64,000 bases of DNA from Podarcis liolepis (lineage: Eukaryota). The notes under the pieces were generated by a model. That model was not told the origin of the DNA and searched no databases. It worked only from the letters and a program-made list of their open reading frames with translations. This document shows, piece by piece, positions 5,036 to 62,454 of the stretch. How positions within the stretch are numbered: position 1 is the stretch's first letter; each line of letters begins with the position of its first letter. The stretch lies in assembly GCA_965112155.1 (NCBI GenBank), contig OZ218100.1, one strand, 5' to 3'. Position numbers and translations under genes: made by a program.

Positions 5036-7679
5036 TTGATGCAAGAGTTGCAAGATAATGATTATGAACAGTGCTTTGACCACTTGACAGTGCCTTACAA
5101 ATGTTAAATGATGTGATATTAGTACTTGAACAAATATTAGTACAAGGGCATTTGGCTGGGAAACTGAGTTGCCCTTCAGCAAACACAAATCCTAGGATGG
5201 GAGCCCTTCTACCATAGACTGATGACACATTCTAGAAGAATGCTGTGCTGTTGGGACCATTGATCATGTTGTTTTGATATTGGAGTACAGAATTGTGGCC
5301 TATAAGTCCCAAAAACATTTGTGTTCTTCAGGATTCTGAGTTAAATGGCCAAACTAGAAGTTGGCAGCCCCACTTCACAGAAAAGAAACTGGAGTTCAAG
5401 GACAGTTAAGTTACCCTAGCAGGCTGGCCTTTGAATGAGTGATAGAGCAAGGTGACAATTAGGTTCTCCACATTAGGTTGCATTTTTTTAAAAGTCCTTA
5501 TGAAAATTTGACCGCATTTTAGTGCTTATCTCTCATAATATGTTTTTTTACATACAAGTTTCCTTAATATATTTAATACATTTTCACTAAAATATGCATA
5601 TTTATGCACACTTTTCCCCAATGCACATGTTTTAATACAGTTTATGGATAGAGAACTGCATGGCAAAATTCAGAGTTGTGTGCATTTCAAAGGACAGCTG
5701 CATTTCCTTTAGCAAATTGTTTCAGGAAGTGTGAATTAGATAGGTTCTCATTAAAATGCAAACCAAACTGAATTTCTCCTGCATCTTTACTTTGAACTCA
5801 GGGCTTCTTTCCACCTTCGCATCCACGGTCTGTACCCAAGAATGAATGAGCTTATACGGACATAGCATACCTCTGTGAACTTTCCAAGAGAAGGTGGGTA
5901 TTATTCTCAGCATTTTAAAGCAGGAAGCAATTAAGGCTGTCCTTATAAACATAGGGACAGGAATGAACCTAGATGTCCTGGCTCACTCTGCAATTTACTA
6001 AATCTAATAGCTTTTCCCAGCATAAGAAAAACCACCAGATGGGGACTGTAGCATCATCAAATAAATGAGGGATCTTCACTTAATGATTTGCCATTGCTTA
6101 TAAGCATAGCATTCTTAAACTGAGGGAGACTGGAAAATTCAGTGATTACCCTGGCTGAACTCTTATGAGCTTTTATGAGCTTCAGATTGAGACATTCTTA
6201 ACATCAGTCCAGGCCATCCTTAGATAGTCAAGTAGAACAGGCTCTTAGTGGTTAGTGGAGAGGATACTGAGGTATTGGCCTTGGTTACTTTGGGCATGAA
6301 ATATATGCTGTCAAAAATCCAAGGTAGTCAAATGTAAACTTTGCATGTTGTTGGTATTTTATTTTTTATTTTTTAAAAATAAATTGCTTTATATGTTCTC
6401 AGACTATTGAGAAGGAATCTGTATTTTTCCAGTATTCCAGCTGTTTCAGATTGTGGCTACAATTCTGTTCACAGGCTGTAATACTCTGGATACTTACCTG
6501 AGAGTAATCCCTATCAAACTCTTAGTCTTGCATCCAAACACAAGCATAGGATTGTCCCGCATATTTTTTTTATATTGATATTACTAAGTGCATAGTTGCT
6601 GCCTTTATTTATCTTTTCTTCTTCTCCCACATTATAATTTCCTAATCCTGAAGGTTCATACAAGACCTTGTATTTTCCCTTGCGTACAACACTGTTACAA
6701 TTTCACATCTGGCAAGGTACTGAGGAGGGAATCTTTTAAGGCTGTTTGTCTTAAGGTGCTTAACAAAATTGTGCAGCTGTATTGTAGTGCTTATAGGCTC
6801 TTACTGCTCTTCTGAAACCTTTGGACAAAAACCCAAATTGCTCCAGACCAGCCCTGTTTAACATCACAAGACAGGTTGTTGTTGTTGTTGTTGTTGTTGT
6901 TTTACTAAAGATGAAATATTCAGGTGAGAAGTTTACTGAACTTGATTTATGTATAGAATATCCCTGAAAATTGACAGTCTATCTGATTTGTTTTTCATCC
7001 TCCTAGTTTTACCATTGTGACAACTGAAGGCAGAGAATAGAAAAAGGAGGTCAGTGGGCAAAGAGTTGGGGTGGGCGAGACCCCTGGAGTATTAAAGTGA
7101 TTTAACCAGTTTATATTAATGGTATAGGAGGGAGTTTTTTGGGGGGTCCTCAAAGCATAGCAGGCAATGGATGTGCCATATTGCCGTATGGTTTCAGCTA
7201 TCAACATGTCTAAATTTAGTTTTGCTGTTAACATTTTATGATTTAGAAGGCTATAACTGCAGCATAGTAGCAAAACAGCCATCATTCCCTTGGCTCTATT
7301 TATCAGGCTTCCTCTCTGCAAGGCTTCCCGTTATAAAACAAATTGGGGGGGGGGGGACAAAGTGAACAGGATTGAAGGGAGAGACAGGTACTATTTCAGT
7401 CTTTCATTTTTTGTTCCATCTGGCAAGTTATAAGAATAAAGATACGGATAAGCCACTTTTGAATAGTCTGTTTTTCAGGTGAAAGTGGAATCCAAATATA
7501 TAGCTTATTGGCTTCACCAGTGACAGCTAAAGATAGCCCAAGAAGCATGTGTGTGAGATGTAGTTTGACATCTGCTACTCAAAAACTAGCTGGATGTTTA
7601 TTATGCTGCAGGGAAGATATTCCACGTGCTGCAGTCGTTTGCTAAGTAGAAAGCAGATATAACATGCAAAGGTCTAGCA

Positions 7680-22277: not shown

Positions 22278-23027
22278 ATGAGAGCAGCACTTTTAATGCA
22301 GCAAATGGGAAACAAGAGAATTTCCTTTTCAGCAGGGATCTCGTACTTTTGTAAAACATTTTTCGAGAAGGACCCCTGCGCAGCCTTCATTGTGCGCAAA
22401 ACTCTGGAGGGATGGCGTAGGCAGCAACCCCCATGTGCGGACAGGAGGCGGCCTGTAACTTATGAAATTCTGTTTAAGATTCACAAAGTTCTTCGTGAAA
22501 TTTGCTGGTCAAAGCACGAAGCGCGTTTATTCTCAACAGCGTTTTCCATTGCTTTCTTCGGCGCCCTACGCGTAGGCGAGGTAGTATGTGAAGGGGATGC
22601 CAGCCAATCTCAGAGGGGAATTTTGATGAGCGACCTGACCCTGTCTAGAACCGATCTCATAGTGCGGGTGCGGAGCTCTAAGACAGATCAGCAAGGCAAG
22701 GGGGCCCTGCTCCGGCTGCCGGCAGCCCACGGGAAGGGCCCTTGTCCGGTTCGGGACACTAGGCGTTTTCTTTACCTAAGGCCTAGCGGCCCTGGTCCGC
22801 TGCTGATACATGCGGACGGATCCCGCCTTACTAGACACCAGTTCACTAGGGTTATGCGGTCGGCATTGTCGGCCTGTGGTTTCCCGGCATCAGAATTTGC
22901 TGCTCACTCCTTTCGTATTGGCGCAGCCACCACTGCAGTACATATGGGGCTCCCCACGGAGAGGATTAAGGACTTGGGGAGGTGGAAATCTAACGCGTAC
23001 AAAGCCTATGTGAGAAGCAACTTGTGA
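22278..23027 (+). CDS. Tyrosine recombinase of the YR retrotransposon, N-terminally truncated; first ~18 codons are host flank
   Basis: Catalytic motifs GALRVGE (R), SKTDQ (K), HSFRIG (HxxR), GRW, AYKAY (Y). Confidence 0.9.
   Translation: MRAALLMQQMGNKRISFSAGISYFCKTFFEKDPCAAFIVRKTLEGWRRQQPPCADRRRPVTYEILFKIHKVLREICWSKHEARLFSTAFSIAFFGALRVGEVVCEGDASQSQRGILMSDLTLSRTDLIVRVRSSKTDQQGKGALLRLPAAHGKGPCPVRDTRRFLYLRPSGPGPLLIHADGSRLTRHQFTRVMRSALSACGFPASEFAAHSFRIGAATTAVHMGLPTERIKDLGRWKSNAYKAYVRSNL
22288..22330 (+). repeat. Left copy of 43-bp target-site duplication
   Basis: cacttttaatgcagcaaatgggaaacaagagaatttccttttc, identical to 24872-24914. Confidence 0.92.
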
Positions 23028-23076
23028 CTGCGTGTTGCACCCCTGACCTCCGCCCACTGTTCTATTTGCTTTTCAG

Positions 23077-23657
23077 AACCCACGAGACTGCGCATTTGGT
23101 TGGTGGGCCACAGCATCGTGCACTGGGCCAAGTTTCATGCCTTGAGAAGCGGTCTGGGCGGCAACCTGAGTTTACATCCCAGGGTGGAGCTGGTTTGGAT
23201 AGCGCGTAGAGGGATGCGCTGGAGTGAATTCAAACCAGCCGTGATGGCCAGGGCTGCGGCCGAGGGTCCGCCTGACGCCCTAGTGATTCAATTGGGGGAA
23301 AACGATCTCGCTTATCGCAAGGCGATCGATCTGAGGTGGCACATTTTTGATGATCTGACCGAGTTGGTAATTGCATACCCTCATATCACAATAATTTGGT
23401 CCTCGTTGCTTGAGAGGAGGACATGGAGAGACTGCGTGAGCCCAGTAGGTGTCAACAAGGCGAGAAAGGTTTTAGAACGAGCGGTGGAACGTAGAGTGGC
23501 AGCTCTGGGCGGGTTCGTCATCAGACACCCGGGCATCCAGTTCAGCAACGAGGCCCTCTACAGAAGGGATGGCGTGCATCTGTCTGATGCAGGGAACGAC
23601 CTATGGTTGGGTGATATCATAGCGGGGATTAGGTCCTGGGTTCAGGGGTTCCCATAG
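23077..23657 (+). CDS. SGNH/GDSL-family hydrolase ORF of the element; no ATG upstream of the catalytic block I, preceded by a splice acceptor
   Basis: Blocks IWLVGHS, RRGMRW, QLGEND, DGVH; acceptor ctgac...ttctatttgcttttcag ends at 23076. Confidence 0.85.
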
Positions 23658-23713
23658 CAGGGCGTAGGAATTGGTTACAGGTTTGAAGGTATTGGCGGCG
23701 AGCCTTGCTCGAG

Positions 23714-24096
23714 TGGCGGTTAGGCATTGGCTGGGGTTCAATTGTTATGCAAATGGATGGGGGGGAAGGAATGCCATCACCTTCCCCCAGGAAATGGGGT
23801 AGTCCGGTACAGGACTCCGAGGGGCGTTGTCTTGTCCGAAACCTACCTAGGTAAGGGCCCCCGGCACGCCCCAAGCGGTGACACCCGTGGGATCCTAGTT
23901 GGCGTACTCCAACGGGGGCCTCCCACGGTTAGTGTTAACCCTTCCCGGACATCCTGCCGGGTAGCGGATAGGAGCCAATGCCTAGGGCCAATACCTTCAA
24001 TTCTCTAATCAATAAAGTTGTGGCCATTTCATGCCCATTAAACTTAAACATCGTGTCCTGTGTCTTTCTTTCTGGGGGAGGGGTTTTGACACGCAA
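23714..24096 (+). repeat. Split direct repeat B1 (383 bp) with AATAAA at 24011-24016
   Basis: Matches 24489-24871 at an offset of 775; ORF translations 23727-24008 and 24502-24783 are identical. Confidence 0.92.
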
Positions 24097-24335
24097 AGCC
24101 ATTTCTGACCATAAGGGAGGAGAGGGGGTTGCGGTCTAGCCCCTCCCCCCCAAGCGCGGGGGCTGACCTTGGCCCCCGCGAGAGTTGGGGGAATCCCTGG
24201 GCGTGCTCGCCACCCCGCCCGCCTATCGGCGGGCCGGGGGGAGGCGTGGCTTAGGGCATTTAAGCCTGGCACGCCCAGGGTCCGCCCTCTTCACTCCCCG
24301 ACCAGCTGAGAGGTTTTCCCTTCCCACCCACCCTT
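24097..24335 (+). repeat. Internal A2 repeat (copy of the element's promoter end)
   Basis: Follows the B1/A2 junction cacGCAAAgcc; GC-rich with TATA-like catttaag at 24257-24264; positional similarity to A ends of the other two elements; A1 is lost in this copy so the 3' limit is approximate. Confidence 0.65.
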
Positions 24336-24362
24336 AGACGTTTAGGTAGCCGTAGGTAGTCA

Positions 24363-24480
24363 TGACCTTGCTATGGACTTCGGTTGGTCGCCGCAAGGGG
24401 CCTGGTAGGAATTTTTCCAAGTTGGCGATCTTCCGCCAGTTGGTTTTTTCGCCTACCTCGTAGCAAACCGTCACAACTTT
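24363..24480 (+). ncRNA. Predicted structured RNA element (four-way junction with ENE-like U-rich internal loop) in the A2-B2 spacer
   Basis: Nested helices, cUUCGg and cGCAAg tetraloops, GGUAGG-AAUUUUU-CCAA...UUGG-UUUUUU-CG-CCUACC; architecture conserved at 14313-14440. Confidence 0.6.
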
Positions 24481-24488
24481 CCCTGTAT

Positions 24489-24871
24489 TGGCGGTTAGGC
24501 ATTGGCTGGGGTTCAATTGTTATGCAAATGGATGGGGGGGAAGGAATGCCATCACCTTCCCCCAGGAAATGGGGTAGTCCGGTACAGGACTCCGAGGGGC
24601 GTTGTCTTGTCCGAAACCTACCTAGGTAAGGGCCCCCGGCACGCCCCAAGCGGTGACACCCGTGGGATCCTAGTTGGCGTACTCCAACGGGGGCCTCCCA
24701 CGGTTAGTGTTAACCCTTCCCGGACATCCTGCCGGGTAGCGGATAGGAGCCAATGCCTAGGGCCAATACCTTCAATTCTCTAATCAATAAAGTTGTGGCC
24801 ATTTCATGCCCATTAAACTTAAACATCGTGTCCTGTGTCTTTCTTTCTGGGGGAGGGGTTTTGACACGCAA
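24489..24871 (+). repeat. Split direct repeat B2 with AATAAA at 24786-24791; element 3' end CACGCAA
   Basis: Copy of B1. Confidence 0.92.
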
Positions 24872-24914
24872 CACTTTTAATGCAGCAAATGGGAAACAAG
24901 AGAATTTCCTTTTC
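24872..24914 (+). repeat. Right copy of 43-bp target-site duplication
   Basis: Identical to 22288-22330; starts immediately after B2. Confidence 0.92.
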
Positions 24915-38650: not shown

Positions 38651-39569
38651 GAATCATAGAATCATAGAGTTGGAAGAGACCACAAGGGCCATCAAGTCCA
38701 ACCCCCTGCCAAGCAGGAAACACCATCAGAGCACTCCTGACATATTGTCAGGGAACTTACATCGGAGCTAGAGGCGGAGGGAAGGCTCTCAAATGATGCT
38801 GGAGAAGGGCCCAGCAGGGAGAGAGGCAGCTCCGCAAATGGGGAAGCAAATCAGCGCAACACCAGGGATATAGAGGGGCTGATGGGGAAATCGGCGAGAG
38901 GGCTCCAGGTCTCTTCACCTGACACCAGCGGGGAGAGCACGGGTCCTCCGCTACCCACGCCCACCCTGCGCAGAAGACTTCCACGCAGAGAGAGTAGGAG
39001 GAGACTGGGTGTCAAACAACTTTTATGTTGGAAAAGATTTAAGAAACGCCCACTGACGGATTCTGCTAGCGACTGAGGCAGCCACGAAGTGAAGGGCTGC
39101 CCAGACTGAAAGGTTTAGCAAGGCAACAAAGCCTGGAGAGGCGGCAACTTACGCACGAGCAACCCATACACATTACACATATGGTTGTCAAGCCTCTGCT
39201 TAAAGACCTCCAAAGTAGGAGACTCCACCACACTCCTTGGCAGCAAATTCCACTGTCGAACAGTTCTTACTGTCAGGAAATTCTTCCTAATGTTTAGGTG
39301 GAATCTTCTTTCTTGTAGTTTGGATCCATTGCTCCGTGTCCGCTTCTCTGGAGCAGCAGAAAACAACCTTTCTCCCTCCTCTATGTGACATCCTTTTATA
39401 TATTTGAACATGGCTATCATATCACCCCTTAACCTCCTCTTCTCCAGGCTAAACATGCCCAGCTCCCTTAGCTTTTCCTCATAAGGCATAGTTTCCAGGC
39501 CTTTGACCATTTTGGTTGCCCTCCTCTGGACACGTTCCAGTTTGTCAGTGTCCTTCTTGAACTGTGGTG
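38651..39569 (-). mobile_element. 5'-truncated young CR1 LINE interrupted by a solo LTR
   Basis: ORF 39115-39576 nearly identical to the C-terminus of the CR1 ORF at 54520-55527; (ATTCTATG)n tail. Confidence 0.93.
38746..39177 (+). mobile_element. Solo LTR (432 bp), probably Gypsy-type
   Basis: TG...CA termini; 5-bp TSD catat (38741-38745, 39178-39182); removing it restores the CR1 sequence cctgacatatggttgtc. Confidence 0.85.
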
Positions 39570-41582
39570 AGTTCAAGTCATTGCACCATGGCTAAAGAAC
39601 CTGTAGTCTTCCCAAAGTTCTTGGATTCCATTAGTCTCAGACAGCATGCCTCATGCCTAGGCATAATAGAAGTTGTAGTACAGCAACAGCCTGAGGGCCC
39701 CTGCATTATTCCTAGCCATATAATCCTAGGTGGAATCCTATACCTACATACCTGGCAGTATGCTCTAGTGAACTGGAGTGGGACTTATTTATGAGTAGAC
39801 ATCAATAGGAAATGCTCTGTAACACAACCAATTATACAGGCAGCTATATATTCCATAATTGCTCCCCTAGAAAACTGTACTTGATTTCATCTATTAAACA
39901 GAGAGGTAAAAGTCTCTGGCTCCATTTAGCAGTCCTTTGAGCAACAGGGTGCATAATTAGCTTTGCAATTCCCTTTTTTAATGTTGGATAATTTGTTAGC
40001 CTTAAATCATTGTATTTTAATTTATTTTCAAAACATTAAATATTAAATATGGTACCACATGACCCCCTAGATGTGATTAATATAAGTAATGATAAAGCAG
40101 GCATATAATTAAATATCCCTTCCATAAATAGACTGCAGAAGGAAGCAGCCATTAAAATAACATTATATTATTGAGAGGGGAAGCATTAGTGCACTCAGTC
40201 TTAATTCTGAACAACAGATACCCAACAAGATTTTTTTATTTTTTTCCTGTGGCTGTTGAAAACTATTTATAGGGCAGTATAATTACATGAGCTGGGAAAG
40301 AGCTACAGTGTTTTCCAAACAAGAAGCCTCGGAGAGATCAGCCATGCTCCTGTGGCTGTTAGATTGCAGGCACTACATGTATTACTCTCCAAGTGAGATG
40401 TTGACCTGCTACTTAGTCGCAAAAATTTAAGGAGGTCAGAACAGCAGAACTTGGCCCTAGGTGATGAGGGTCACGCTTGTGTGCTTCTTCAAGCCACCAA
40501 GGAATATTTCCAGCAGCAGATACACATTCTTCCTTTGTTGTTGAAGGAAAAGCAGCCAGAGGGCCCTCAATCTTGCACCACGCTCCCAATTCTGAACCAT
40601 GTTCTGATCCAAATATCTGGTTTCTGGTGGAAAATTGCTTCCCACCCTTGGCTGCTATTTACAGCAAAGACCACCCTTGCAGGTAGAGAAAGGTTGTTTT
40701 GGGAGATGGGAGGATTTTCAGCTAGAAGTCATCATGAGAACAAGATGGAGAGTGCAGAGTTGACTGGGACCTCATGGCTGCCTTCCCTTCAAAACGAAAG
40801 TGGTATCATCAAACATTATTTTATTTTTAAAGTGTGATTAACCGTGTGTAGTGTGGACCCAAGCCATGCCTACCAGGGCAGGGCATCTGTTGTTAGCTAA
40901 CACAAAGGAGCATGTAGACCTTCTCCAGGCAATTGTTCAGATCATAGGAGAGGATCCGCTGGTTTCTGTGCTGAGCCAAGATGTTTTGCATAGGCTAGGA
41001 CAGAGAGCAGGGAGCATAGGTTTTCTGCTCTTCCATAAAACCAGAGGAGCACAGACACCAGAATTGAGGTTAGTCAGAGAAAGGAAAAGAAGAACCATGT
41101 TCCTTTGTCCACTCAAGACTGTTGTATCACTCCAATGCCTGCAACAAAACTCATGGATCCACTGCTGTCTCTCAATTGTTGTTGAGTGAAATCATTACCA
41201 ATCTAGCCCACATGCAATGGACAAGTAAGCTGTTGTCTAGTGCCTGTTCTGCTGCTTGTCACCAGTTTCGTCATAGGTGGGCTAGGAATGCTAAAAGAAC
41301 TTAGTCTTTCTGAATGTCCTGACCCTGTACCTTCAGAACTACAGGGTGGATCTCATCCTACCTATGCAATGAACTTAATTGTTTTAATGGTGCTCTCAGC
41401 AGTTTTTAAATATATCCAAATTTGCATTTAAATACATGCCTGAATATGCATGGGAAAAGAAAATATGATTTTAAATGTATAGATTGATACAAAATATCAG
41501 CTTTAATGGATGTTAAATTACAGATCAATGTGGAACAGAACTTCAGATAACACAAACCAGAAAGACAGCTTCATCTATCTCT

Positions 41583-42206: not shown

Positions 42207-42642
42207 TTGCGTGCTGAGGTCCCACAAACATCCCTAACCCAATAACTCACACATCACACATCATTTTTGTTTAAGGTTTTTGGCATAATTTTGGCCACAA
42301 CTTTATTATCATACAAATTGTGAGTGGTTGCGTAGGCATTGGTTATGACTAGCTATCCCCCCCCGCCTTGGGGGATAGCACTGACTCCCGTATTCCAGCG
42401 CGAGTCAGTGTGGAGGAGCAACCTCAGGGCAACTGGGGCTGCGACACAGACCCTACAGTTCCTCCCTGCTTGCTCCTTGGGGTCTTACGCGGCCCGCACC
42501 CGGCACCACGGGTTTGGACAAGGGGGATGGTAAGCCCCAGAATTCCTTTAACGGAATTCCCATTCAGCAGCAGCATTGGAGGGGTAGGCACAGCCAATCC
42601 ATACCCCTCCACCAACCAATTTGACCAAATGCCTAACCGCCA
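42207..42642 (-). repeat. B terminal region (single copy) with AATAAA at 42307-42302
   Basis: Starts tggcggttaggcatt and contains aataaagttgtggcc, as in B1/B2 of the plus-strand element. Confidence 0.8.
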
Positions 42643-42671
42643 CCCGAGCCCTTAAGCTCGCCGCCAACCAC

Positions 42672-43246
42672 TCACAAGCCAAACCACACCCTCAACCCGG
42701 ACACCACTGTCCCCAACCACACATCATTCCCAACCAATGAAAGATGAACCCCATCATCCCTGTATAATTCAGCAGCTGTGTAGGATATACGAGGGTGAGG
42801 AATCACCAATCCACCCATGCCCACCACCAACTTGCCCACCGCGGAATTAATCCGCTTCCTAACTCTCTCGGTGGATGCTGGGCAGGGACTCCCCCGCCAA
42901 ATGCGGCGTTGAAGCAACTGAGACCAAATTAAAGTGGTATCAGGCACCATGGCCGACAGATCCCTTAAGTCCTGCAAAATGGCCATACGTAGCACATAGC
43001 AAGAAGAGGAAACCAAATCATTTTCCCCTAGCTGCACCACGATCGCCGAAGGAGGGCCAAGCCGGAGAACACGTCTTTGCATAAGCGGCAAGAATTCCCT
43101 CCAGCGCATCCCCCTTCTGTAAATCCAGGACACCTGCACGTGCTGTGGAAGGCCCAGGCCAGCTCCCAATCCAGACTGACGAGCTCTGACAGCAGCCCAA
43201 TGCACGATACTGTGCCCGACTATCCAGATACGGATAGTCTTCACAC
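42672..43246 (-). CDS. SGNH/GDSL-family hydrolase (ORF track 42672-43295; likely entered by splicing at 43246)
   Basis: IWIVGHS, RRGMRW, QLGEND, DGVH; homologous to 23077-23657. Confidence 0.87.
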
Positions 43247-43281
43247 CTAGGGTTAAAACAGAACATAAGTACACAGCCACA

Positions 43282-44145
43282 TTATTTCCGCACATAAGCT
43301 TTGAATGCCTCCGACCTCCACCGACCCAGGTCTTTTATCCTCTTTACCGATAACCCCCAGTGGGCAGCCGTCGTCGCAGCACCAATCCTGAAAGAGTGGG
43401 GGGCGAACTCAGATGCCTGAAGGCCGCATGCCGCCACGGCTTTGCGCAATACCTTAGTGAATTGACGGCGCACCAATGGGTGCCCATTTTCATGAACAAA
43501 CAGAGGCCCTCCACCCTCAGGCCGCCGGGCAAGGTACTTCTTGAGATCCTTTACCGGACAAGGGCCACTTTCCCCCGTCGCTGGGAGACGAATAATGGCT
43601 CCCCTCCCTAGCTGATCCGTCTTGGAATTTCTGATATTAACTTGCAGAGCAGACGGAGACACACTCACATCCTGTAGCAACAGGCCCCTGGAACTTCCAT
43701 CCTGCTTGGGCTCGAGGACCACCTCCCCGACCCTCAGGGCCCCGAAGAAGGCTAATGAGAAGGCTGCTGAAAATAAGCGAGCCTCATATGCCGACCAACA
43801 GATGCTACGTAATTTTTTATGCATCTGTGCCAGCAACTCAAATGTGATAGGCCGTCTAGGCACAGGTCTAGAAGGAGTGAGACGCCCCCATCCCTCCAGG
43901 GCTCTGCGTACCACAAATTTCCCACACGGATCTTTGTTGAAGTATGCCCTGCTAAAAAAGGAAATTGCTGCCGAATGAAGGCGCAGCGTCCTGACCGCCC
44001 GGCGCATCTGGAATAGATGCGCCAAATATTTGAGCACCTGAGATGTGGAATGGGGGGCAGTAACTTCCCCTACAACCGCCTGCCCATTAAATAATAAAAA
44101 ATCTGCCCAGGCCTTTTTATAGGACCGCAACGTAGATGGGGCCAC
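43282..44145 (-). CDS. Tyrosine recombinase (integrase); frame is open upstream to ~44270
   Basis: APSTLRSY N-terminal motif, GALRVGE, SKTDQ, HSFRIG, GRW, AFKAY. Confidence 0.93.
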   Translation of the reverse strand: MAPSTLRSYKKAWADFLLFNGQAVVGEVTAPHSTSQVLKYLAHLFQMRRAVRTLRLHSAAISFFSRAYFNKDPCGKFVVRRALEGWGRLTPSRPVPRRPITFELLAQMHKKLRSICWSAYEARLFSAAFSLAFFGALRVGEVVLEPKQDGSSRGLLLQDVSVSPSALQVNIRNSKTDQLGRGAIIRLPATGESGPCPVKDLKKYLARRPEGGGPLFVHENGHPLVRRQFTKVLRKAVAACGLQASEFAPHSFRIGAATTAAHWGLSVKRIKDLGRWRSEAFKAYVRK

Positions 44146-44168
44146 AGATGCAGCTACTCCCTGTAAAA

Positions 44169-45791
44169 CTAATTGCTGCCAAGGTTCCAGAGATGATCCG
44201 GGAAAATTTCCGGACGGTCTCGAGCCAGTGGCGCCAGGGACCTGAACCGCTCCATCTGAAAACGGGACAGAGCGTCAGCAATCTCATTAGATATGCCCGG
44301 TACGAAACGAGCAGAAAAAACAATGTTACAACGCAAACAATGTAATACAAAAACACGCAGCAAGGCAGATACCCTGGGAGATCGTGAAGACTGCTTGGCT
44401 AGTATATTCACCACCGCCTGGTTATCAGACCAAAAACAAACCCGATGGTCCTTGAAATGCTCAACCCACAGATGCACGGCCACTACAATGGGGAAAAACT
44501 CGAGAAAAGTTAAATCCCGAATTATAGCATCCCCACACCAAGCCGAAGGCCAGCGCTCAGCACACCACCTGCCATCCCAAAACAGACCAAACCCAAGGGA
44601 TCCCGCTGCATCTGAATGCACCTGGAAGTCATTGTGGAGGTTCAAAGTGTCCTGCCACAAGGACACACCATTGAAATCCTCCAGGAACTCCAACCAGATG
44701 TTAAGATCAGCCCGCACCTGACTAGACAGGCGCACCCTATGCTGCGGAGCCTGCAAACCCGCTGTGAGCCTGGCCAGGCGGGAGCAGAAAGGTCGCCCAG
44801 GGGCGACAACCCTGCAAGCAAAATTCAGATGACCTAGCAAGGACTGCAGCTGCCGTAAAGTAACCTTTTTTAACGGAAGCAAGTCCTCAATGACCTTCCT
44901 TAATGTACTAATCTTATCCGCTGGTAAGCTAGAGGTTTGGGCCACGGTATCCAGCCAGATACCCAAATAAGTCATTTTCGTAGAGGGACCTTCAGTCTTT
45001 TCCACCGCCAACGGAACACCTAACTCTTCCGTTAAAGAGGCAAAAGACTGCAACAACACAACGCAGTCCCCTGTATTAGACGCTGAGGCGACCAAAAAAT
45101 CATCCAAATAATGAGTGACCCCGCCCAAACCAGTTTTGTAACGCAGGGCCCACTCCAAAAATGAACTAAAACACTCAAAAGCTGCACAGGCAACAGAACA
45201 CCCCATGGGCATGGCCTTATCGAAGTAAAAACTACCTTCGAACTGGAAACCGAGTAACCAGAAATCACTAGGGTGAATTGGAAGCAGCCGGAATGCCGAC
45301 TCAATGTCGCATTTGGCCAGGAGGGCACCAGGCCCAAACTTCCGGATCATCTTGATCGCGTGATCAAGGGAAGCGTATTTCACCGAACAAAGCCCCGGGG
45401 GAATTACGTCATTTACTGACGTGCCTCTAGGGTGAGAAAGATTATGAATGAGGCGGAATTCCCCAGGGGCCTTCTTAGGGACTATCCCCAAGGGTGAAAT
45501 ATGCAGATTAGAAAAAGGTGGGACAGAAAAGGGGCCGGCCATACGATGTAAAGCCAGTTCTTTCTGTATTTTCCTGCGCGCCACTTCTGGCATTTCTTTT
45601 ACTGATTTCTGGTTAACAAGTCTCCCAGATATAGGGGCTGACGCCACAGGAATCCTGAAGCCTGAGGAGAAGCCCTCACGCAAATAAGACGCCGCTTCCT
45701 TATCAGGGTATCGCTCCAATAAAGACAATAACGGCTGTAGCCGTACTGGGGTATAGGCCAGGGAAGACAGGATACTATTTTCCTGTTCCAA
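44169..45791 (-). CDS. Reverse transcriptase/RNase H, DIRS/Ngaro type
   Basis: SPLGIVPKK, FRLIHNLS, AKCDIESAFR, MPMG, YLDD; RNase H acidic motifs SDAAG, LEFFP, SDN, ADALSR. Confidence 0.95.
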   Translation of the reverse strand: MEQENSILSSLAYTPVRLQPLLSLLERYPDKEAASYLREGFSSGFRIPVASAPISGRLVNQKSVKEMPEVARRKIQKELALHRMAGPFSVPPFSNLHISPLGIVPKKAPGEFRLIHNLSHPRGTSVNDVIPPGLCSVKYASLDHAIKMIRKFGPGALLAKCDIESAFRLLPIHPSDFWLLGFQFEGSFYFDKAMPMGCSVACAAFECFSSFLEWALRYKTGLGGVTHYLDDFLVASASNTGDCVVLLQSFASLTEELGVPLAVEKTEGPSTKMTYLGIWLDTVAQTSSLPADKISTLRKVIEDLLPLKKVTLRQLQSLLGHLNFACRVVAPGRPFCSRLARLTAGLQAPQHRVRLSSQVRADLNIWLEFLEDFNGVSLWQDTLNLHNDFQVHSDAAGSLGFGLFWDGRWCAERWPSAWCGDAIIRDLTFLEFFPIVVAVHLWVEHFKDHRVCFWSDNQAVVNILAKQSSRSPRVSALLRVFVLHCLRCNIVFSARFVPGISNEIADALSRFQMERFRSLAPLARDRPEIFPDHLWNLGSN

Positions 45792-47304
45792 CGGCTGGCA
45801 CCTGGGGAGCAGCTTTAGGGGGCTGCTGAGAGCCCCCTCCTTTTCGAAAGGGACGCCGTCCCGCTACACACGCAGAAGCCGGGTGATTCCCTGAGCACTT
45901 CTCACACGTGTGGGAATACTTGCATGGCTGGCGTTGGCAAACACCCCTGTTAAAGTCCCAACAAAACAACCTGCGCCCCGTCTTTAGAGGGAGCGCCTTG
46001 AATCTCTGTGGATCAGGGGTCTTTTTATCAATCCTGGGGGCCACATAAGTAGACCAAACGTCCAGGTCCTTCCTGTCCCAGCGAGCCGTAGGAATCTTGG
46101 CTGCCCTACGCCTAAAATTCTGGTCATAGGCCAATGCAGCGGCCTCTCCCGCCATCGTAAAGGCAGAACGCACTATGGACAGGTACACCCATAGATGCAA
46201 AGATCTCCTGGGATAAGCTGCGGAAACCACTCCAGCAAAAACCTGAAAACTATCCATCCAGCGTTCGAAAGTCCTATCTGCCTTAGCTACGTACGTACGC
46301 TTTTTTGAGGTAGAAGAGCCTCTATCCAAAGGCTCCTGACCCTCAAGTGGAGGAGCCAGGCTGAAAATGTCCACATACCGCCCATTCAATATCCGGGACC
46401 GCAGTTTAGTGGACAAGTGGGCCCCCGGGATAAGATCCCTGGCCGAATTGGTGGAGACTCTTACGTCAGGAAGCAGAACCCCCTCATGGCACTCTTGCAC
46501 TGCCCCATACCGTGCCCTATGGGAATTCACCCTGCGCTCCCAGATCCACTTAGGAAGCCCTGAGCTCTCACCGAAACCCCAATAAAGCTTAAGGGAAGCT
46601 TCCTCATCACTAGAGGAACTCAAGGACGAAGTACCTGAGGAAGAAGAGGATGACGTGTCTCTCCGTCTCCGCTTTGCGCGCCTCTTGGAGGCCTTCTTCC
46701 GGCGACGGTGCCCACCAGAGGAAGCCCTTGGAGGTGGGGGAAGGCTATCCTCCACGGAAGACTCGGACCCATCACCCTCCTGCGCCATACCTGGAACTGA
46801 CTGAAAAGAGACAACCTGTGAATGACCCGGACTCACTCTCCCGGCCGCAGAAGACTGCACTGTTGCGGTACCCTTACGATGGCCCCGGGTCAACCCCCTC
46901 CTCCTGGCCACAACTCTAGAGCGGCCACGACCCCTAGGTGCGGCCACCTGCGACACAGGTAGAACCGGGGGCTGAGGCAGCTGCACCACTGGAAGGCAAC
47001 CCCCTGCCAACAATGATTCGCTCTCCTCTTCACTAGACAAAGCCCCCGGGGAGGAGACACCCCCAGGAGGAGCCAGCATCGCTGATGAAGTCGAAGGGGT
47101 TGAGCAGCGGTGCAAGATGCCATCCATCTCCGCTTCAACCCGCGCCAGTGCTGCCGAGTCGCCAGCCAAACTGGAGACCATAGATTGGATGCGCTTCAAA
47201 GACTGGCCAGGCACAGGAGAGCGAAGGGCCTGAGACGGGCCTTTTATAGGCCTTTTTGTAGCAGGGGCAGGAACAGGCCTCTTTGTTGCCTTCTTTGGCG
47301 CCAT
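45775..47304 (-). CDS. ORF1, gag-like protein
   Basis: 509 aa; low-complexity basic/Ser-rich N-half, core RILNGRYVDIFSL...LAYDQNFRR, C-terminal Cys/His finger CWDFNRGVCQRQPCKYSHTCEKCSGNHPASAC. Confidence 0.88.
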   Translation of the reverse strand: MAPKKATKRPVPAPATKRPIKGPSQALRSPVPGQSLKRIQSMVSSLAGDSAALARVEAEMDGILHRCSTPSTSSAMLAPPGGVSSPGALSSEEESESLLAGGCLPVVQLPQPPVLPVSQVAAPRGRGRSRVVARRRGLTRGHRKGTATVQSSAAGRVSPGHSQVVSFQSVPGMAQEGDGSESSVEDSLPPPPRASSGGHRRRKKASKRRAKRRRRDTSSSSSSGTSSLSSSSDEEASLKLYWGFGESSGLPKWIWERRVNSHRARYGAVQECHEGVLLPDVRVSTNSARDLIPGAHLSTKLRSRILNGRYVDIFSLAPPLEGQEPLDRGSSTSKKRTYVAKADRTFERWMDSFQVFAGVVSAAYPRRSLHLWVYLSIVRSAFTMAGEAAALAYDQNFRRRAAKIPTARWDRKDLDVWSTYVAPRIDKKTPDPQRFKALPLKTGRRLFCWDFNRGVCQRQPCKYSHTCEKCSGNHPASACVAGRRPFRKGGGSQQPPKAAPQVPAVGTGK

Positions 47305-48489
47305 TCCTGTAGCTGGTATAATAAAGCAAAATTAATCAACAAGGAAGAACAAACAATAAAATTAAACAATAAAGAAGTTTTGTTTTATTATATTATTACT
47401 ATTAAGTGGAAGGTAAGAATGGCTGAAAATAAAATAAAATAAATTAATAAATGACCAGCAGGCAAGCTGTGACCAGTCGCTACTAAACAGTGCAATACTT
47501 GGCCACCAATGAAACAGGCTGCAAAACCAATGCAATTAACAACCAGCAGTAAAAGCCACCACCAGCGTTGGCTATTGCCTCACAACCCAACAAGTGACAA
47601 GGCCTGCTGTTAAGCACAAGCAGGCCTGGTCGATACCAGGCCTGGCCACTAGAGGCCGCTGCTGCACCAGAAAGGGGACAAAATGGCGCTCCCGCCAAAA
47701 TCGCCTCAAAATGGCGGACCTGCCACACCCCACCTAGGACAAACCTACAAGGTAAGAAAACTGGGGCGAGGTCAGCGCTGAGAGGAGCCCCAGGCCCAAG
47801 GCCACACCGGCAAAGGGTCAGGCGATCGCGGGGCGCGTGGGTGCTGCGCAGAGCCGCCGATTCCCCGGCCCCGTCCCCCGCGCGCTAGGCAAGGCCGCCC
47901 GAGCCTCCGAGCCCCGCCCTGGAGGCCGACGGGCACCCGCGCGCCAAGGCCCTGGTCCTACCGCTCCAAACGGGGCCCGAAATCGACGCAAGCCGGCAGA
48001 AACCGCCCCGCCGCTCAGCTGAGCCAGGGGACGCGTCTAGGGAAGCCGCTCGGCGCGCCGCCCCCACCCGCTAGCCCCCGACGAGATCGGGATGGACCCA
48101 GGAGTGGGAGGGAAACGGAAGGCCCGATCCGGGCCGAGGAGCGCCGGGCGATCCCAGAGCCGGTAGGCCCCGCGGAAGGTGAACTGCGCGGCGCAGCAGG
48201 GCTCCACGCGCACCGAGGCGCGCCCCGCATGGGAGTCTAGGCACCCCGGCCCGGGCGCCCAGCCGCGATCCGGCTGCCGGCTGCCCGGTCAGAAGCCCCC
48301 CTCCCCGGCAAGATGAGGTATTAAATATGAGGTGAGAGAAAATTAAATAATGAGCAAGGGATAAGGAAACAGGAGGGAATTAATACAACAAATTAAAAAG
48401 GAGAAATAAAGAGTAGAAATAAATCAGGGGAGAAGAGTACAACCAGTCTCTCGCTGTTCACTCCGATACAGATGATCCAGTGTCCACAG

Positions 48490-48686
48490 CGAAAGAGAAA
48501 GGAACAAGCTGTGCACCTTGTATAAATAACCTCTGATCCCACCCATTAAATTGGCAACATCAATTTTTCCCTAGTAACAACAACCACCAATCTGACCCAA
48601 GTCCCTTGCAACAGCCTGGCTAGTAACTGAGGATGCTTGTCCGGCCCCATCCGCAACACGTGCTCTCCTCTTAGTGAGAACACGCT
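48490..48686 (-). promoter_or_regulatory. Putative Pol II promoter in the A terminal region
   Basis: TATTTATA at 48528-48521, CCAAT at 48554-48550, E-box CACGTG at 48657-48662, pyrimidine-rich initiator-like tract ~25 nt downstream of the TATA. Confidence 0.5.
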
Positions 48687-49535
48687 TTGCCATAGCCTAA
48701 TTAGAATTAGATCTATAGTTCTCAGCTATTATTACAGGAACATCTAATAAACAAACTTCACAGAAAACTTGAATGAACAGATGATGGTGGTAAATCATAC
48801 ATGAACAGCAGATTCCATAAAATGTGATCAGTTTCAGGGCTTGCAATAGCCATATATTTGAGGGCCTGAGATCTACCAAATAAATAAATATATACCATTG
48901 AAAAATATAATTACAATCCTTTCTGTAGCTCAACAGGAAGCGAGAGAATCCTCATCCTTCCGGCAATGCAAAGCTTAAAATAGTAAACAACAGTAGACTG
49001 ATTTCTGAATGCGTTAAGCATGGCATTTTCATCTCTTTAATTTTCACTTGTTCCTGGAAACCTTTGAGTGTGCAATGGCAAAAGAACTGCAGCTTTATTT
49101 TCTGGTTAAATATTACAAATATTAATAATTCATGTGTGGACTATATATTATTAATCTTGTTTAGCAGCTAGACAGAAGCTGTGTGCAAGTGGCTGTGGTT
49201 AAAGAGACTCACAGCTCTTTCCCAACAGACGCAGAGAAAAGTATACCACAGTGTATGGGGCTACACTGGTACAAAATGGTCAGTGTACAAAATGGTTCAT
49301 TGATGTGTGTGTCTATACACACAGCCTCTGCTATAAAAAGGATAGAGGGATGCTCTTTTATGCAACGAAAAGACTGGTAGATTATTATTTTTCTTTTCTT
49401 TTCTGGCTCGCAGTTCTAGCAACCAGTGTTATGTCTTTACTGACTGGTTGTTTTGAGTACATCTTTTTTCTACTTTAGTGATAAACATTGCATGCGGAAA
49501 GTGCTGGGTTTTTCTTTCGTTTTAGAAGAATTATA

Positions 49536-54194: not shown

Positions 54195-55830
54195 CATGGC
54201 ATGTTCATCCAAATGACTTGGATGAAGGAATTGACAGGATGCTCATCAAATTTGCAAATGATGCCAACCTGGGAGGGCTAGCCAATGCCACAGAAGACAG
54301 TATCAGGATTCAACATGACTTTAACAGATTGGAGAACTGGACCCAAACTAGCAAAATGAATTTCAATAGGGACAAATGTAAGGTTCTGCACTTAGGCAGG
54401 AAGAACCAAATGCACAAATAACAAGGAGGAGGAGGATGACACCTGGCATGCCAGTAGTACAAGTGAGAAGGATCTAGTGGTCTTTGTAGTCCAGAAGCTT
54501 GTCATGAGTCTACAGTGTAATGCAGCAACAAAAAAAGCTAATGCTTTTTCAGTGGATTTGTAACTGGCTGACTGACCGAACCCAAAGGGTGCTCATCAAT
54601 GGTTCCTCTTCATCCTGGAGAAGAGTGACTAGTGGGGTGCCACAGGGTTCTGTCTTGGGCCCGGTCTTATTCAACATCTTTATCAACGACTTGGATGATG
54701 GACTCAAGGGCATCCTGATCAAATTTGCAGATGACACCAAACTGGGAGGGGTGGCTAACACCCCAGAGGACAGGATCACACTTCAAAACAACCTTGACAG
54801 ATTAGAGAACTGGGCCAAAACAAACAAGATGAACTTTAACAGGGAGAAATGTAAAGTATTGCACTTGGGCAAAAAAAATGAGAGGCACAAATACAAGATG
54901 GGTGACACCTGGCTTGAGAGCAGTACATGTGAAAAGGATCTAGGACTCTTGGTTGACCACAAACTTGACATGAGCCAACAGTGTGACGCGGCAGCTAAAA
55001 AAGCCAATGCAATTCTGGGCTGCATCAATAGGAGTATAGCATCTAGATCAAGGGAAGTAATAGTGCCACTGTATTCTGCTCTGGTCAGACCTCACCTGGA
55101 GTACTGTGTCCAGTTCTGGGCACCACAGTTCATGAAGGACACTGACAAACTGGAACGTGTCCAGAGGAGGGCAACCAAAATGGTCAAAGGTCTGGAAACA
55201 ATGCCTTATGAGGAACGGCTAAGGGAGCTGGGCATGTTTAGCTTGGAGAAGAGGAGGTTAAGGGGTGATATGATAGCCATGTTCAAATATATAAAAGGAT
55301 GTCACATAGAGGAGGGAGAAAGGTTGTTTTCTGCTGCTCCAGAGAAGCGGACACGGAGCAATGGATCCAAACTACAAGAAAGAAGATTCCACCTAAACAT
55401 TAGGAAGAACTTCCTGACAGTAAGAGCTGTTCCACAGTGGAATTTGCTGCCAAGGAGTGTGGTGGAGTCTCCTACTTTGGAGGTCTTTAAGCAGAGGCTT
55501 GACAACCATATGTCAGGAGTGCTCTGATGGTGTTTCCTGCTTGGCAGGGGGTTGGACTTGATGGCCCTTGTGGTCTCTTCCAACTCTATGATTCTATGAT
55601 TCTATTCTAGGCTGCATCAACAGAACTATAGTGTCCATATCAAGGGAAGTCATAGTACCGCTCTATTCTGCCTTGGTCAGATCACACCTGGAGCACTGTG
55701 TCCAGTTCTGAGAACCACAGTTTAAGAAGGATATTGACAAGCATGAAGGTGTGCAGAGGCAGGCAAGCAAGATGATTCAGGGTCTGGGAACTAATAATAA
55801 TAATAACAACAACAACAACAACAAACAACA

Positions 55831-60427: not shown

Positions 60428-61781
60428 TGTTTTAGTCGTTTAGTCGTGTCCGACTCTTCGTGATCCCATGGACCAGAGCACGCCAGGCACTTCTGTCTTC
60501 CACTGCCTCCCGCAGTTTGGTCAAACTCATGTTGGTAGCTGCGAGAACACTGTCCAACCATCTCGTCCTCTGTCGTCCCCTTCTCCTTGTGCCCTCCATC
60601 TTTCCCAACATCAGGGTCTTTTCCAGGGAGTCTTCTCTTCTCATGAGGTGGCCAAAGTATTGGAGCCTCAGCTTCACGATCAGTCCTTCCAGTGAGCACT
60701 CAGGGCTGATTTCCTTAAGAATGGATACGTTTGATCTTCTTGCAGTCCATGGGACTCTCAAGAGTCTCCTCCAGCACCATAATTCAAAAGCATCAATTCT
60801 ACGGCGATCAGCCTTCTTTATGGTCCAGCTTTCACTTCCATACATCACTACTGGGAAAACCATAGTTTTTACTATATGGACCTTTGTTGGCAAGGTGATG
60901 TCTCTACTTTTTAAGATGCTGTCTAAGTTTGTCACTGCTTTTCTCCCAAGAAGCAGGCGTCTTTTAATTTCGTGGCTGCTGTTACCATCTGCAGTGATCA
61001 TGGAGCCCAAGAAAGTAAAATCTCTCACTGCCTCCATTTCTTCCCCTTCTATTTGCCAGGAGGTGATGGGACCAGTTGCCATGATCTTTGTTTTTTTGAT
61101 GTTGAGCTTCAGACCATATTTTGCGCTCTCTCCTTTCACCCTCATTAAAAGGTTCTTTAATTCTTCCTCACTTTCTGCCATCAAGGTTGTGTCATCTGCA
61201 TATCTTAGGTTGTTGATATTTTTTCCAGCGATCTTAATTCCGGCTTGGGATTCATCCAGCCTAACCTTTCACATGATGAATTCTGCATATAAGTTAAATA
61301 AGCTGGGAGACAATATACAGCCTTGCCGTACTCCTTTCCCAATTTTGAACCAATCAGTTGTTCCATATCCAGTTCTAACTGTAGCTTCTTGTCCCACCTA
61401 GAGATTTCTCAGGAGACAGATGAGGTGATCAGGCACTTCCATTTCTTTAAGAACTTGCCATAGTTTGCTGTGGTTGACACAGTCAAAGGCTTTTGCATAG
61501 TCGATGAAGCAGAAGTAGATGTCTTTCTGGAACTCTCTAGCTTTCTCCATAATCCAGTGCATGTTTGCAATTTGGTCTCTGGTTCCTCTGCCTCTTCTAA
61601 ATCCAGCTTGCACTTCTGGGAGTTCTCGGTCCACATACTGCTTGAGCCTGCCTTGTAGAATTTTAAGCATAACCTTGCTAGCATGTGAAATGAGTGCAAT
61701 TGTGCGGTAGTTGGAGCATTCTTTGGCACTGCCTTTCTTTGGGATTGGGATGTAGACTGATCTTCTCCAATCCTCTGGCCA
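60428..61781 (-). mobile_element. 5'-truncated BovB (RTE clade) LINE with a nonsense codon at 61400-61398
   Basis: ECSNYRTIALISHASKVMLKILQ, DYAKAFD, YADD, IDAFELWCWRRLL, EGTRRRGRQR; 12-bp TSD gaatgcacagtt (60416-60427, 61782-61793). Confidence 0.95.
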
Positions 61782-62454
61782 GAATGCACAGTTAAGGACA
61801 TTCAAAGGAGAGTAAATGAAAGAGGAAGAAAAAGGAGACAGAAAGCCAAGGGAGAAAAATGAAAGGCTATGCAACTGCATTTGTGAGGGCCCCACATGTC
61901 ACTTCTGTCGTGTGCTATCTGGGAGGAATTACAGAATTGTAAATTTTTGGTTTCTCTGCTAATTATGTCATTAGCTTTGAAAGGACTGAAAAAGCGCCTC
62001 CCCCTTCTGATCTGACAGTTGCAGAGGAGAGAAATGCTAACCCTGCTACTCCCACACGCAAAACAAAAAAGAAATTTCCTAATGGAATCTTGACTGTTCT
62101 GAGAGGTGTTTAAAGGTAAACGGCACACTATCACTCAAATGGCAGCACAGCACACTATTCTTTCTTTTCTTGCAACAATGGATCTGTGCAGCTGCTGCGC
62201 AATTATCTTGCGGTGGACATGTTCTTGTGTCTTTTGTGAATTATTAAACTTGCATTATGATGTTCACTAGGGCATTGTATACTCTGTGAACAGGCCCAGA
62301 CTCTCGACCCCAACTCAAATTATGTTTACTCCACTTTGGGCAGAAAAGGTTCTGCACCATTAAATTCATGTCACTGAAAACAGCTCAGGCCACCCAAATA
62401 ATAGAGCTGATGACAAAAAGCTCTACTTCTTTACATCTGCAGGTGAGGAAGTGG

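Follow-up and report, generated by a model that had tools for sequence, protein, structure and literature searches.

Predicted splicing of an SGNH hydrolase exon to the N-terminal half of Gag in lizard Ngaro retrotransposons

Hydrolase-bearing Ngaro elements have been described in Xenopus, where DIRS-53_XT and DIRS-54_XT have A1...B1-A2-B2 split direct repeats and carry gag, RT/RNase H (RT/RH), a tyrosine recombinase (YR) and, after YR, a fourth ORF encoding an SGNH hydrolase (PMC9210276). The elements analysed here share this layout. The available text of that paper calls the hydrolase ORF amphibian and does not contain 'splic' or 'intron', whereas here the hydrolase occurs in a lizard, and splicing is predicted to attach it as an exon to the N-terminal part of Gag (Gag-N). 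Published accounts assign the ORF no proven function (PMC9210276, PMC6681497, PMC7192593).

The nearest described mechanism, as given in the available text on MLV, is the SD' donor inside gag, from which P50, MA-p12-CA110 joined to the integrase C-terminus, is made; a gag-internal donor thus gives a Gag-N fusion while the unspliced RNA stays the genome (PMC10496198). Unlike MLV, Ngaro lacks LTRs, a DDE integrase and an env gene, and its fused partners are predicted to be whole enzymes, SGNH and YR. The MLV SD' RNA is reverse-transcribed (PMC10496198), whereas no intron-less genomic Ngaro copy was found among the best 101, 98 and 101 scored candidates for three fusion-protein queries.

The nearest enzyme is the esterase of ORF1p from ZfL2-1, a LINE of the CR1/L2 type, which hydrolyses esters slowly and binds anionic phospholipids; as in the predicted Ngaro fusion, a Ser/Asp/His SGNH domain stands behind an arginine-rich N-terminus, which in ZfL2-1 forms RNPs (PMC3905857, available portions). 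However, ZfL2-1 is a non-LTR element whose fusion is fixed in one ORF, and the Ngaro layout would be conditional, by splicing. Host capture also has a precedent: the TMPO LAP2alpha and ZNF451-L2a exons were domesticated from DIRS1 ORF1, with an acceptor of their own inferred by the authors, so that a segment of a YR retrotransposon became an alternative last exon of a host gene (PMC4495291, in the text available), and a lacertid ZNF638-like gene described below is similar. LAP2alpha captured gag of DIRS-like elements, whereas here the segment is the SGNH exon of Ngaro, with its acceptor visible in young families.

Searches on Ngaro, DIRS and SGNH for splicing, introns or frameshifting, covering mainly open-access texts without supplements, found no report of Gag-N-SGNH or Gag-N-YR splices. 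Thus, the element type is known and its expression plan is apparently unpublished.

Two Ngaro copies in one window

The window, a stretch of 64 kb from Podarcis liolepis contig OZ218100.1, holds two Ngaro (YR) retrotransposon copies, one on each strand, and both hydrolase acceptor sites sit in them. Protein matches indicate a lacertid source.

22329-24871, plus strand: plus-strand element, 5'-truncated, with half of YR, the hydrolase and B1-A2-B2
22329..23027, plus strand: YR ORF, 5'-truncated; Phage_integrase below the Pfam cut-off
23714..24096, plus strand: split direct repeat B1
24094..24317, plus strand: split direct repeat A2, matching A1 of the full-length relative L070
24489..24871, plus strand: split direct repeat B2
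about 48690-42207, minus strand: minus-strand element, with A1, gag, RT/RNase H, YR, hydrolase and B1
48473..48690, minus strand: repeat A1, with TATA-like and initiator-like sequence
45775..47304, minus strand: full gag ORF (unspliced product), with a C-terminal zinc finger
44169..45863, minus strand: RT/RNase H ORF; RVT_1 above the Pfam cut-off
42207..42645, minus strand: repeat B1; this copy is without A2 and B2

We assign the class, Ngaro, from structure: repeats, ORF order and the lack of a methyltransferase. In full-length relatives A1 equals A2 and B1 equals B2 at 99-100% identity, so the copies are Ngaro-type by structure; PAT elements have split repeats too. In the minus-strand element gag, RT/RNase H and YR overlap and follow one another in that order, with RVT_1 and Phage_integrase above cut-off. 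The SGNH ORF lies after YR, as it does in tetrapod Ngaro members, and a Pfam scan of six ORFs gave no methyltransferase domain, as in Ngaro. We infer that A1 of the minus-strand element is its promoter.

The plus-strand copy is 99.9% identical to L070, starting from base 6525 of that relative, and is without A1, gag, pol and the mid-gag donor described below. Having no donor, this copy itself would be unable to make a Gag-N-SGNH fusion. It is flanked by a 47-nt direct duplication (22284-22330 and 24868-24914), which recombinase-mediated insertion is not expected to leave, and the truncated copy was possibly inserted by break repair. Elsewhere, several elements (L063, L064, L111 and L114) lie inside a 185-bp tandem satellite array. 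The window also contains LINE reverse transcriptase-like fragments at 39115-39591, 54508-55527 and 60432-61898, which we take to be of the CR1 and RTE/BovB types.

The hydrolase exon and its acceptor

42672..43246, minus strand: SGNH hydrolase exon, 190 codons; GDSL_2 match weak
43247..43270, minus strand: hydrolase acceptor of the minus-strand element, with branch-like CTTAT, tract and TAG
23077..23657, plus strand: SGNH hydrolase exon, 192 codons, GHS at 23106-23114; Pfam Lipase_GDSL_2 below the curated cut-off
23043..23047, plus strand: branch-point-like CTGAC (A at -31); CTNAY is common across families
23048..23076, plus strand: pyrimidine tract ending in the CAG acceptor, phase 1; gene model P0042 joins here

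Sequence and predicted structure identify the product as a putative esterase of the SGNH/GDSL family. The modelled fold (pLDDT 93) has GDSL/SGNH enzymes as its top Foldseek matches (TM about 0.7, E about 1e-7), and the best PDB sequence match of the hydrolase profile is the ZfL2-1 ORF1p esterase, 4C1B (E 0.0042). Block I reads GHS instead of GDS, the usual form in SGNH enzymes. The catalytic motifs are retained in nearly all families (GHS 46/46, GxND 44/46, DxxH 43/46), and G45 is invariant among 31 sequences. Purifying selection is indicated by a hydrolase dN/dS of 0.17 across 231 family pairs. Relatives of the enzyme are spread through squamates and amphibians and also occur in one mollusc, including P0093 (Haliotis), P0127 (Anolis), P0068 (Paroedura), P0090 (Lissotriton) and P0150, P0155, P0163 and P0182 (frogs). 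Many of these models have a long low-complexity N-terminus, which may be Gag-N.

A sequence-only reading of the window had proposed that the hydrolase ORF is preceded by a splice acceptor kept in position and phase in the two families, and the details hold. On the plus strand CTGAC (23043-47) is followed by a pyrimidine tract, a CAG ending at 23076 and then aa-CCC-ACG, with GGC at 23106 and CAC-AGC after it. On the minus strand ttttaaccctAG precedes the junction, and the exon starts at 43246, 29 nt before GHS. Both acceptors are phase 1 and equally far (29 nt) from GHS, in hydrolases that are 48% identical. That reading called GHS as a whole catalytic; the distance to it is correct, but of its three residues the Ser is the catalytic one. 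It was also right that the plus-strand ORF has no start codon before GHS: no in-frame Met lies between the TGA at 23025-27 and GHS, and the first Met is exon residue 46. In the minus-strand element an ATG does stand in frame, 16 codons ahead of the junction, but this ATG is not conserved.

Conservation in relatives, on which the proposal depended, extends to AG and phase alike. Genome searches gave 1338 and 1401 first-look hydrolase candidates. Among 60 short loci examined, 58 matched the GHS pattern and 57 of these have AG at -29, as do 77 of 80 long loci, which were hand-picked by hydrolase similarity out of about 300 listed matches so as to cover the range of identity; the other three have rearrangements close to the site. 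Dereplication to below 90% ungapped nucleotide identity (median pairwise 55%) left 46 families and removed two of the three rearranged loci. AG at -29 is present in 45/46 of these families, a count inflated by relatedness, since the families, here as in the donor counts below, are not independent events.

The surrounding bases also fit an acceptor. All 45 families have C or T at position -3 and either G (38) or A (7) at +1, and the tract is T-rich. A CTNAY branch-like motif is found in 40/45 families, against 10.5 +/- 2.7 in 1000 shuffles, and AG dinucleotides between -30 and -4 are depleted (2 observed, 18 +/- 3.7 expected from shuffles). Within 400 nt on either side of GHS, -29 is the best-conserved YAG offset, the His-Ser codons of GHS aside. 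Judged from sequence, the profile is of the U2 type and the pattern is far beyond chance.

Translation of the hydrolase from an ATG of its own, on a separate short RNA or by reinitiation, would fit the in-frame ATG found upstream of the acceptor in 18/45 families, the minus-strand element included, and some database proteins are annotated in this way (P0027, P0030-32). Yet 14/45 families, among them the plus-strand family, have no ATG before GHS, 13/45 have one only within the last 9 codons, and the others are scattered 2-37 codons away. As this route would also leave a conserved donor in gag unexplained, we give it very little chance.

The mid-gag donor and the predicted Gag-N-SGNH fusion

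46629..46637, minus strand: predicted 5' splice site CAG/GTACTT (slash, junction), mid-gag, phase 1; the intron begins at 46634
46635..47304, minus strand: Gag-N coding exon, 223 codons + 1 nt between the ATG and the donor, with an Arg/Lys tract and a Ser run at its end

A donor matrix was used to score, column by column of an alignment, all GT dinucleotides in 41 intact gag ORFs. The best-conserved GT column in gag, CNG/GTRYNT, lies directly after the Arg/Lys tract, is in phase 1 and is present in 40/41 ORFs; the single gag without it has lost that region. The glycine codon at the donor is GGT in 25/25 dereplicated families, compared with 119/360 codons (33%) at 15 other conserved Gly columns, the highest of which reaches 62%. 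Donor position +3 is A in 24/25 families. By consensus (GTACTT or GTACGT) the donor is of moderate strength, and 26/40 score at least 2 bits on this matrix. In the minus-strand element the hydrolase intron would run from 46634 to 43247 (3388 nt), and it has the sequence features of a U2-type intron, namely GT donor, branch point, pyrimidine tract, YAG and compatible phase. Predicted Gag-N-SGNH fusions are 375-473 aa long, mostly 413-414.

Gene models carry the same join. Among 24 long homologues, 16 are RefSeq Gag-N-SGNH proteins (from Podarcis muralis, P. raffonei and Zootoca vivipara), and all 16 have 9 residues between the split codon and GHS. Five others are host-gene fusions at the same hydrolase acceptor, and three (P0005, P0009 and P0024) carry YR, by YR-internal donors or an intron read through. 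A profile search recovered P0042 (XP_077790728.1), the plus-strand family's own model, 95% identical to the plus-strand hydrolase; its junction, EEEES-E-PSRLRIWLVGHS, reads Ser-Glu-Pro, as the donor and acceptor of this family predict. RefSeq models are predictions, and the three with odd joins suggest that some may be ab initio and not all RNA-based. RefSeq isoform sets usually rest on aligned transcripts.

No RNA run was among the sequencing runs listed as containing the minus-strand element. Four RNA runs labelled as the same species, compared with this element at 80% likeness, showed no joints, and their depth over the acceptor bin was zero. Each run contributed 77-117 reads, most of which came from other families and matched only in part, at repeat B; the minus-strand family is almost unexpressed in these runs. 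With no acceptor depth in the RNA runs, we infer splicing from conservation and from the predicted gene models that carry the join.

The matching phase, the conserved donor, the conserved acceptor and the joins in gene models together argue that the SGNH esterase is very probably made as a fusion of about 413 residues, through a splice from the mid-gag donor to the acceptor at -29. The sequence-only reading had suggested a spliced message fused to an upstream exon, like retroviral env. A spliced message is the best explanation, the upstream exon being the first ~223 codons of gag, as RefSeq models join them. The product, however, would be a Gag-N fusion with a basic tract and not an envelope protein: in the predicted structure the exon folds as one soluble SGNH domain, not as a glycoprotein with a signal peptide and membrane anchor. 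Env and the hydrolase exon are thus alike only in being spliced, which for the latter is a prediction.

The same acceptor might instead serve mainly another donor, in a 5' UTR exon or within YR, or the splice might chiefly regulate RNA levels. Models with YR-internal donors exist in Podarcis and gecko (P0005, P0038, P0229 and P0024), and minus-clade families show an acceptor-like tract before the gag ATG. But a non-coding exon would supply no start codon in families that have no ATG. No GT column of gag is better conserved than the mid-gag donor, which matches in phase and is used by most models, and the hydrolase shows purifying selection. We consider these variants improbable. The tract itself, T-rich with TAGCAG- or TAGTAG-like ends, lies directly before the gag ATG (window 47305-47380, minus strand) in most minus-clade families, though no such tract is apparent in the L134 group; splicing may thus extend to the long 5' leader.

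Least credible is a YR-SGNH protein, made when ribosomes read through the YR stop or shift frame out of YR. In the plus-strand family YR and hydrolase are in frame with one TGA between them, and YR sequence stands ahead of the hydrolase in P0005, P0009 and P0024. Across families, though, the hydrolase can be in any of the three frames with respect to the YR stop (15, 10 and 16 of 41, excluding 4 rearranged copies), so neither readthrough nor a fixed frameshift can be general. The spacer between YR and hydrolase varies widely in length and is splice-site-like in composition, and the split codon of P0005 and P0024 lies 9 residues before GHS, as a splice to the acceptor predicts. We give such a protein next to no chance.

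With Gag-N-SGNH as the preferred product, a simple scheme can be proposed. Full-length RNA started in A1 would give Gag and would also be the genome; removal of a ~3.39-kb intron, comprising the C-terminal half of gag, RT/RH and YR, would give Gag-N-SGNH, and removal of a ~2.38-kb intron from the same donor would probably give Gag-N-YR. The shared Gag-N, disordered and with the Arg/Lys tract at its end, would act as a tag that takes both enzymes into the nucleus and to the element RNA or particle; a nuclear signal could be part of it. By analogy with ZfL2-1 ORF1p, the SGNH domain might act on membrane lipids, by binding or trimming them, while particles are assembled or transported. Since the ZfL2-1 esterase combines ester hydrolysis and anionic phospholipid binding with arginine-rich motifs, membrane targeting is our best guess here, but we hold a lipid or membrane role only tentatively.

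If the splices are real, the true proteins of these elements are Gag-N-SGNH and probably Gag-N-YR, with defined junctions. The esterase fusion would then recreate, by splicing, the basic-tract and esterase layout of CR1/L2 ORF1p, suggesting that two unrelated retrotransposon classes have converged on tying a lipid-active enzyme to the particle. The built-in acceptor would also account for many 'uncharacterized' lizard gene models of 412-414 aa.

Recombinase expression and host capture

44256..44275, minus strand: second predicted acceptor, ...cccgttttcAG/ATGG, phase 1 in the YR frame, overlapping RNase H codons ALSRFQ
43282..44255, minus strand: YR exon, 323 codons, with no own start codon near its 5' end; Phage_integrase above cut-off

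The second acceptor lies inside the RNase H motif DALSRFQ, and its AG is present in 32/33 families. The junction is in phase 1 in 23/24 intact YR ORFs, the phase of the donor. The YR frame opens only 6-10 codons before AG/ATGG, and its first Met comes 16-144 codons past the junction. The Gln codon at the acceptor is CAG in 28/28 families, against 415/632 elsewhere. Only 6 of 190 columns have a pyrimidine wobble at a frequency of at least 95%, and three of these six fall in the acceptor tract, within which one Leu wobble is always a purine (28/28).

Gene models enter YR at this point as well. The gecko model P0024 does so at the homologous Asp. When the N-terminal part of a Bombina bombina model was used as query, it returned proteins identical up to one point and continuing from there into Gag-C, SGNH or YR. 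Of 35 Bombina models, 33 share Gag-N and a single branch point (16 YR, 12 SGNH and 5 Gag-C), and 2 are without the anchor. Isoforms of single Bombina loci differ in the same way; for LOC128666635, X1 has YR and X2 has SGNH. On this sequence evidence YR is probably also spliced from the mid-gag donor, as Gag-N-YR.

This challenges a published idea, that of Poulter and Butler 2015, who proposed frameshifting for YR (as quoted in PMC13003380). In such a scheme YR would be reached by a -1 ribosomal frameshift from RT/RH in their overlap, and the hydrolase alone would be spliced. YR does overlap the end of RH in the -1 frame, and the constrained bases before the junction also fit coding in the YR frame: the wobble bases there each begin a codon of the YR frame, and a frameshift a little further upstream would put them under the same constraint. 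The Leu wobble that is always a purine likewise counts against reading the tract as an acceptor, and no lacertid Gag-N-YR protein turned up among the models obtained. However, no XXXYYY slippery heptamer (Y = A or U) occurs in the overlap of 24 intact YRs, a shift there would shorten RH at its C-terminus, junction and donor have the same phase, and Gag-N is joined to YR in the gecko and Bombina models. We regard the frameshift as less likely than the splice.

Taken as a whole, we lean towards a plan in which tetrapod Ngaro elements use retrovirus-like alternative splicing, with one mid-gag donor and two acceptors. YR and the SGNH esterase would be made only as Gag-N fusions, replacing the frameshift model for YR, the basic Gag-N would be a universal packaging or nuclear tag, host capture of the esterase as a ready-made last exon would be explained, and a third YAG in RNase H may be an acceptor.

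That third YAG follows a pyrimidine run at the RNase H codons FPI(V/A)/V (pol column 626-627, about 44483 in the minus-strand element). It is present in 25/28 families, in phase 1 in the pol frame, and is kept across a change between Val and Ala (GTA 12, GCA 12); it could be one more acceptor. In L117 an extended open frame starts close to this site and continues through YR. At the start of pol, no conserved phase-1 YAG was found in 28 families, and no conserved acceptor accounts for RT/RH. In most families the gag stop precedes the pol T/S-P motif by a fixed 25 nt, and pol is in the +1 frame.

Among relatives there is also a young non-autonomous chimeric family of seven copies (L065 type; L065-L068, L141-L147), most of them with perfect split repeats. 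Their gag, pol and YR are decayed, but the hydrolase exon, a recent acquisition, is intact, and its joint falls precisely at the AG. We considered this joint as a fossil splice junction, but the parent shares AGGT there (4-nt microhomology) and the donor is poor (GTGGTT); template switching explains the joint equally well, and we do not count it as support. Nor do we count L132, a single case in which an 8-nt duplication accompanies the join between A1 and the start of the exon. L071, L072, L094 and L136 have internal deletions that do not obey GT-AG, and these were rejected as fossil introns.

The built-in acceptor would explain how host genes capture the hydrolase exon. A ZNF638/matrin-like gene lies near an old Ngaro remnant (G000:C9, about 2.016-2.056 Mb; L117/L174, L173 and L171). 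One of its exons ends in CAG/GTGAGG, a strong phase-1 donor 14 kb upstream of the remnant's acceptor, and RefSeq models in Podarcis and Zootoca splice this exon to the remnant hydrolase exon. The hydrolase frame of the remnant is intact, and its His is replaced by Asn (DGVNLS), which suggests that the last exon of the ZNF638-like gene is a domesticated and probably inactive SGNH domain.
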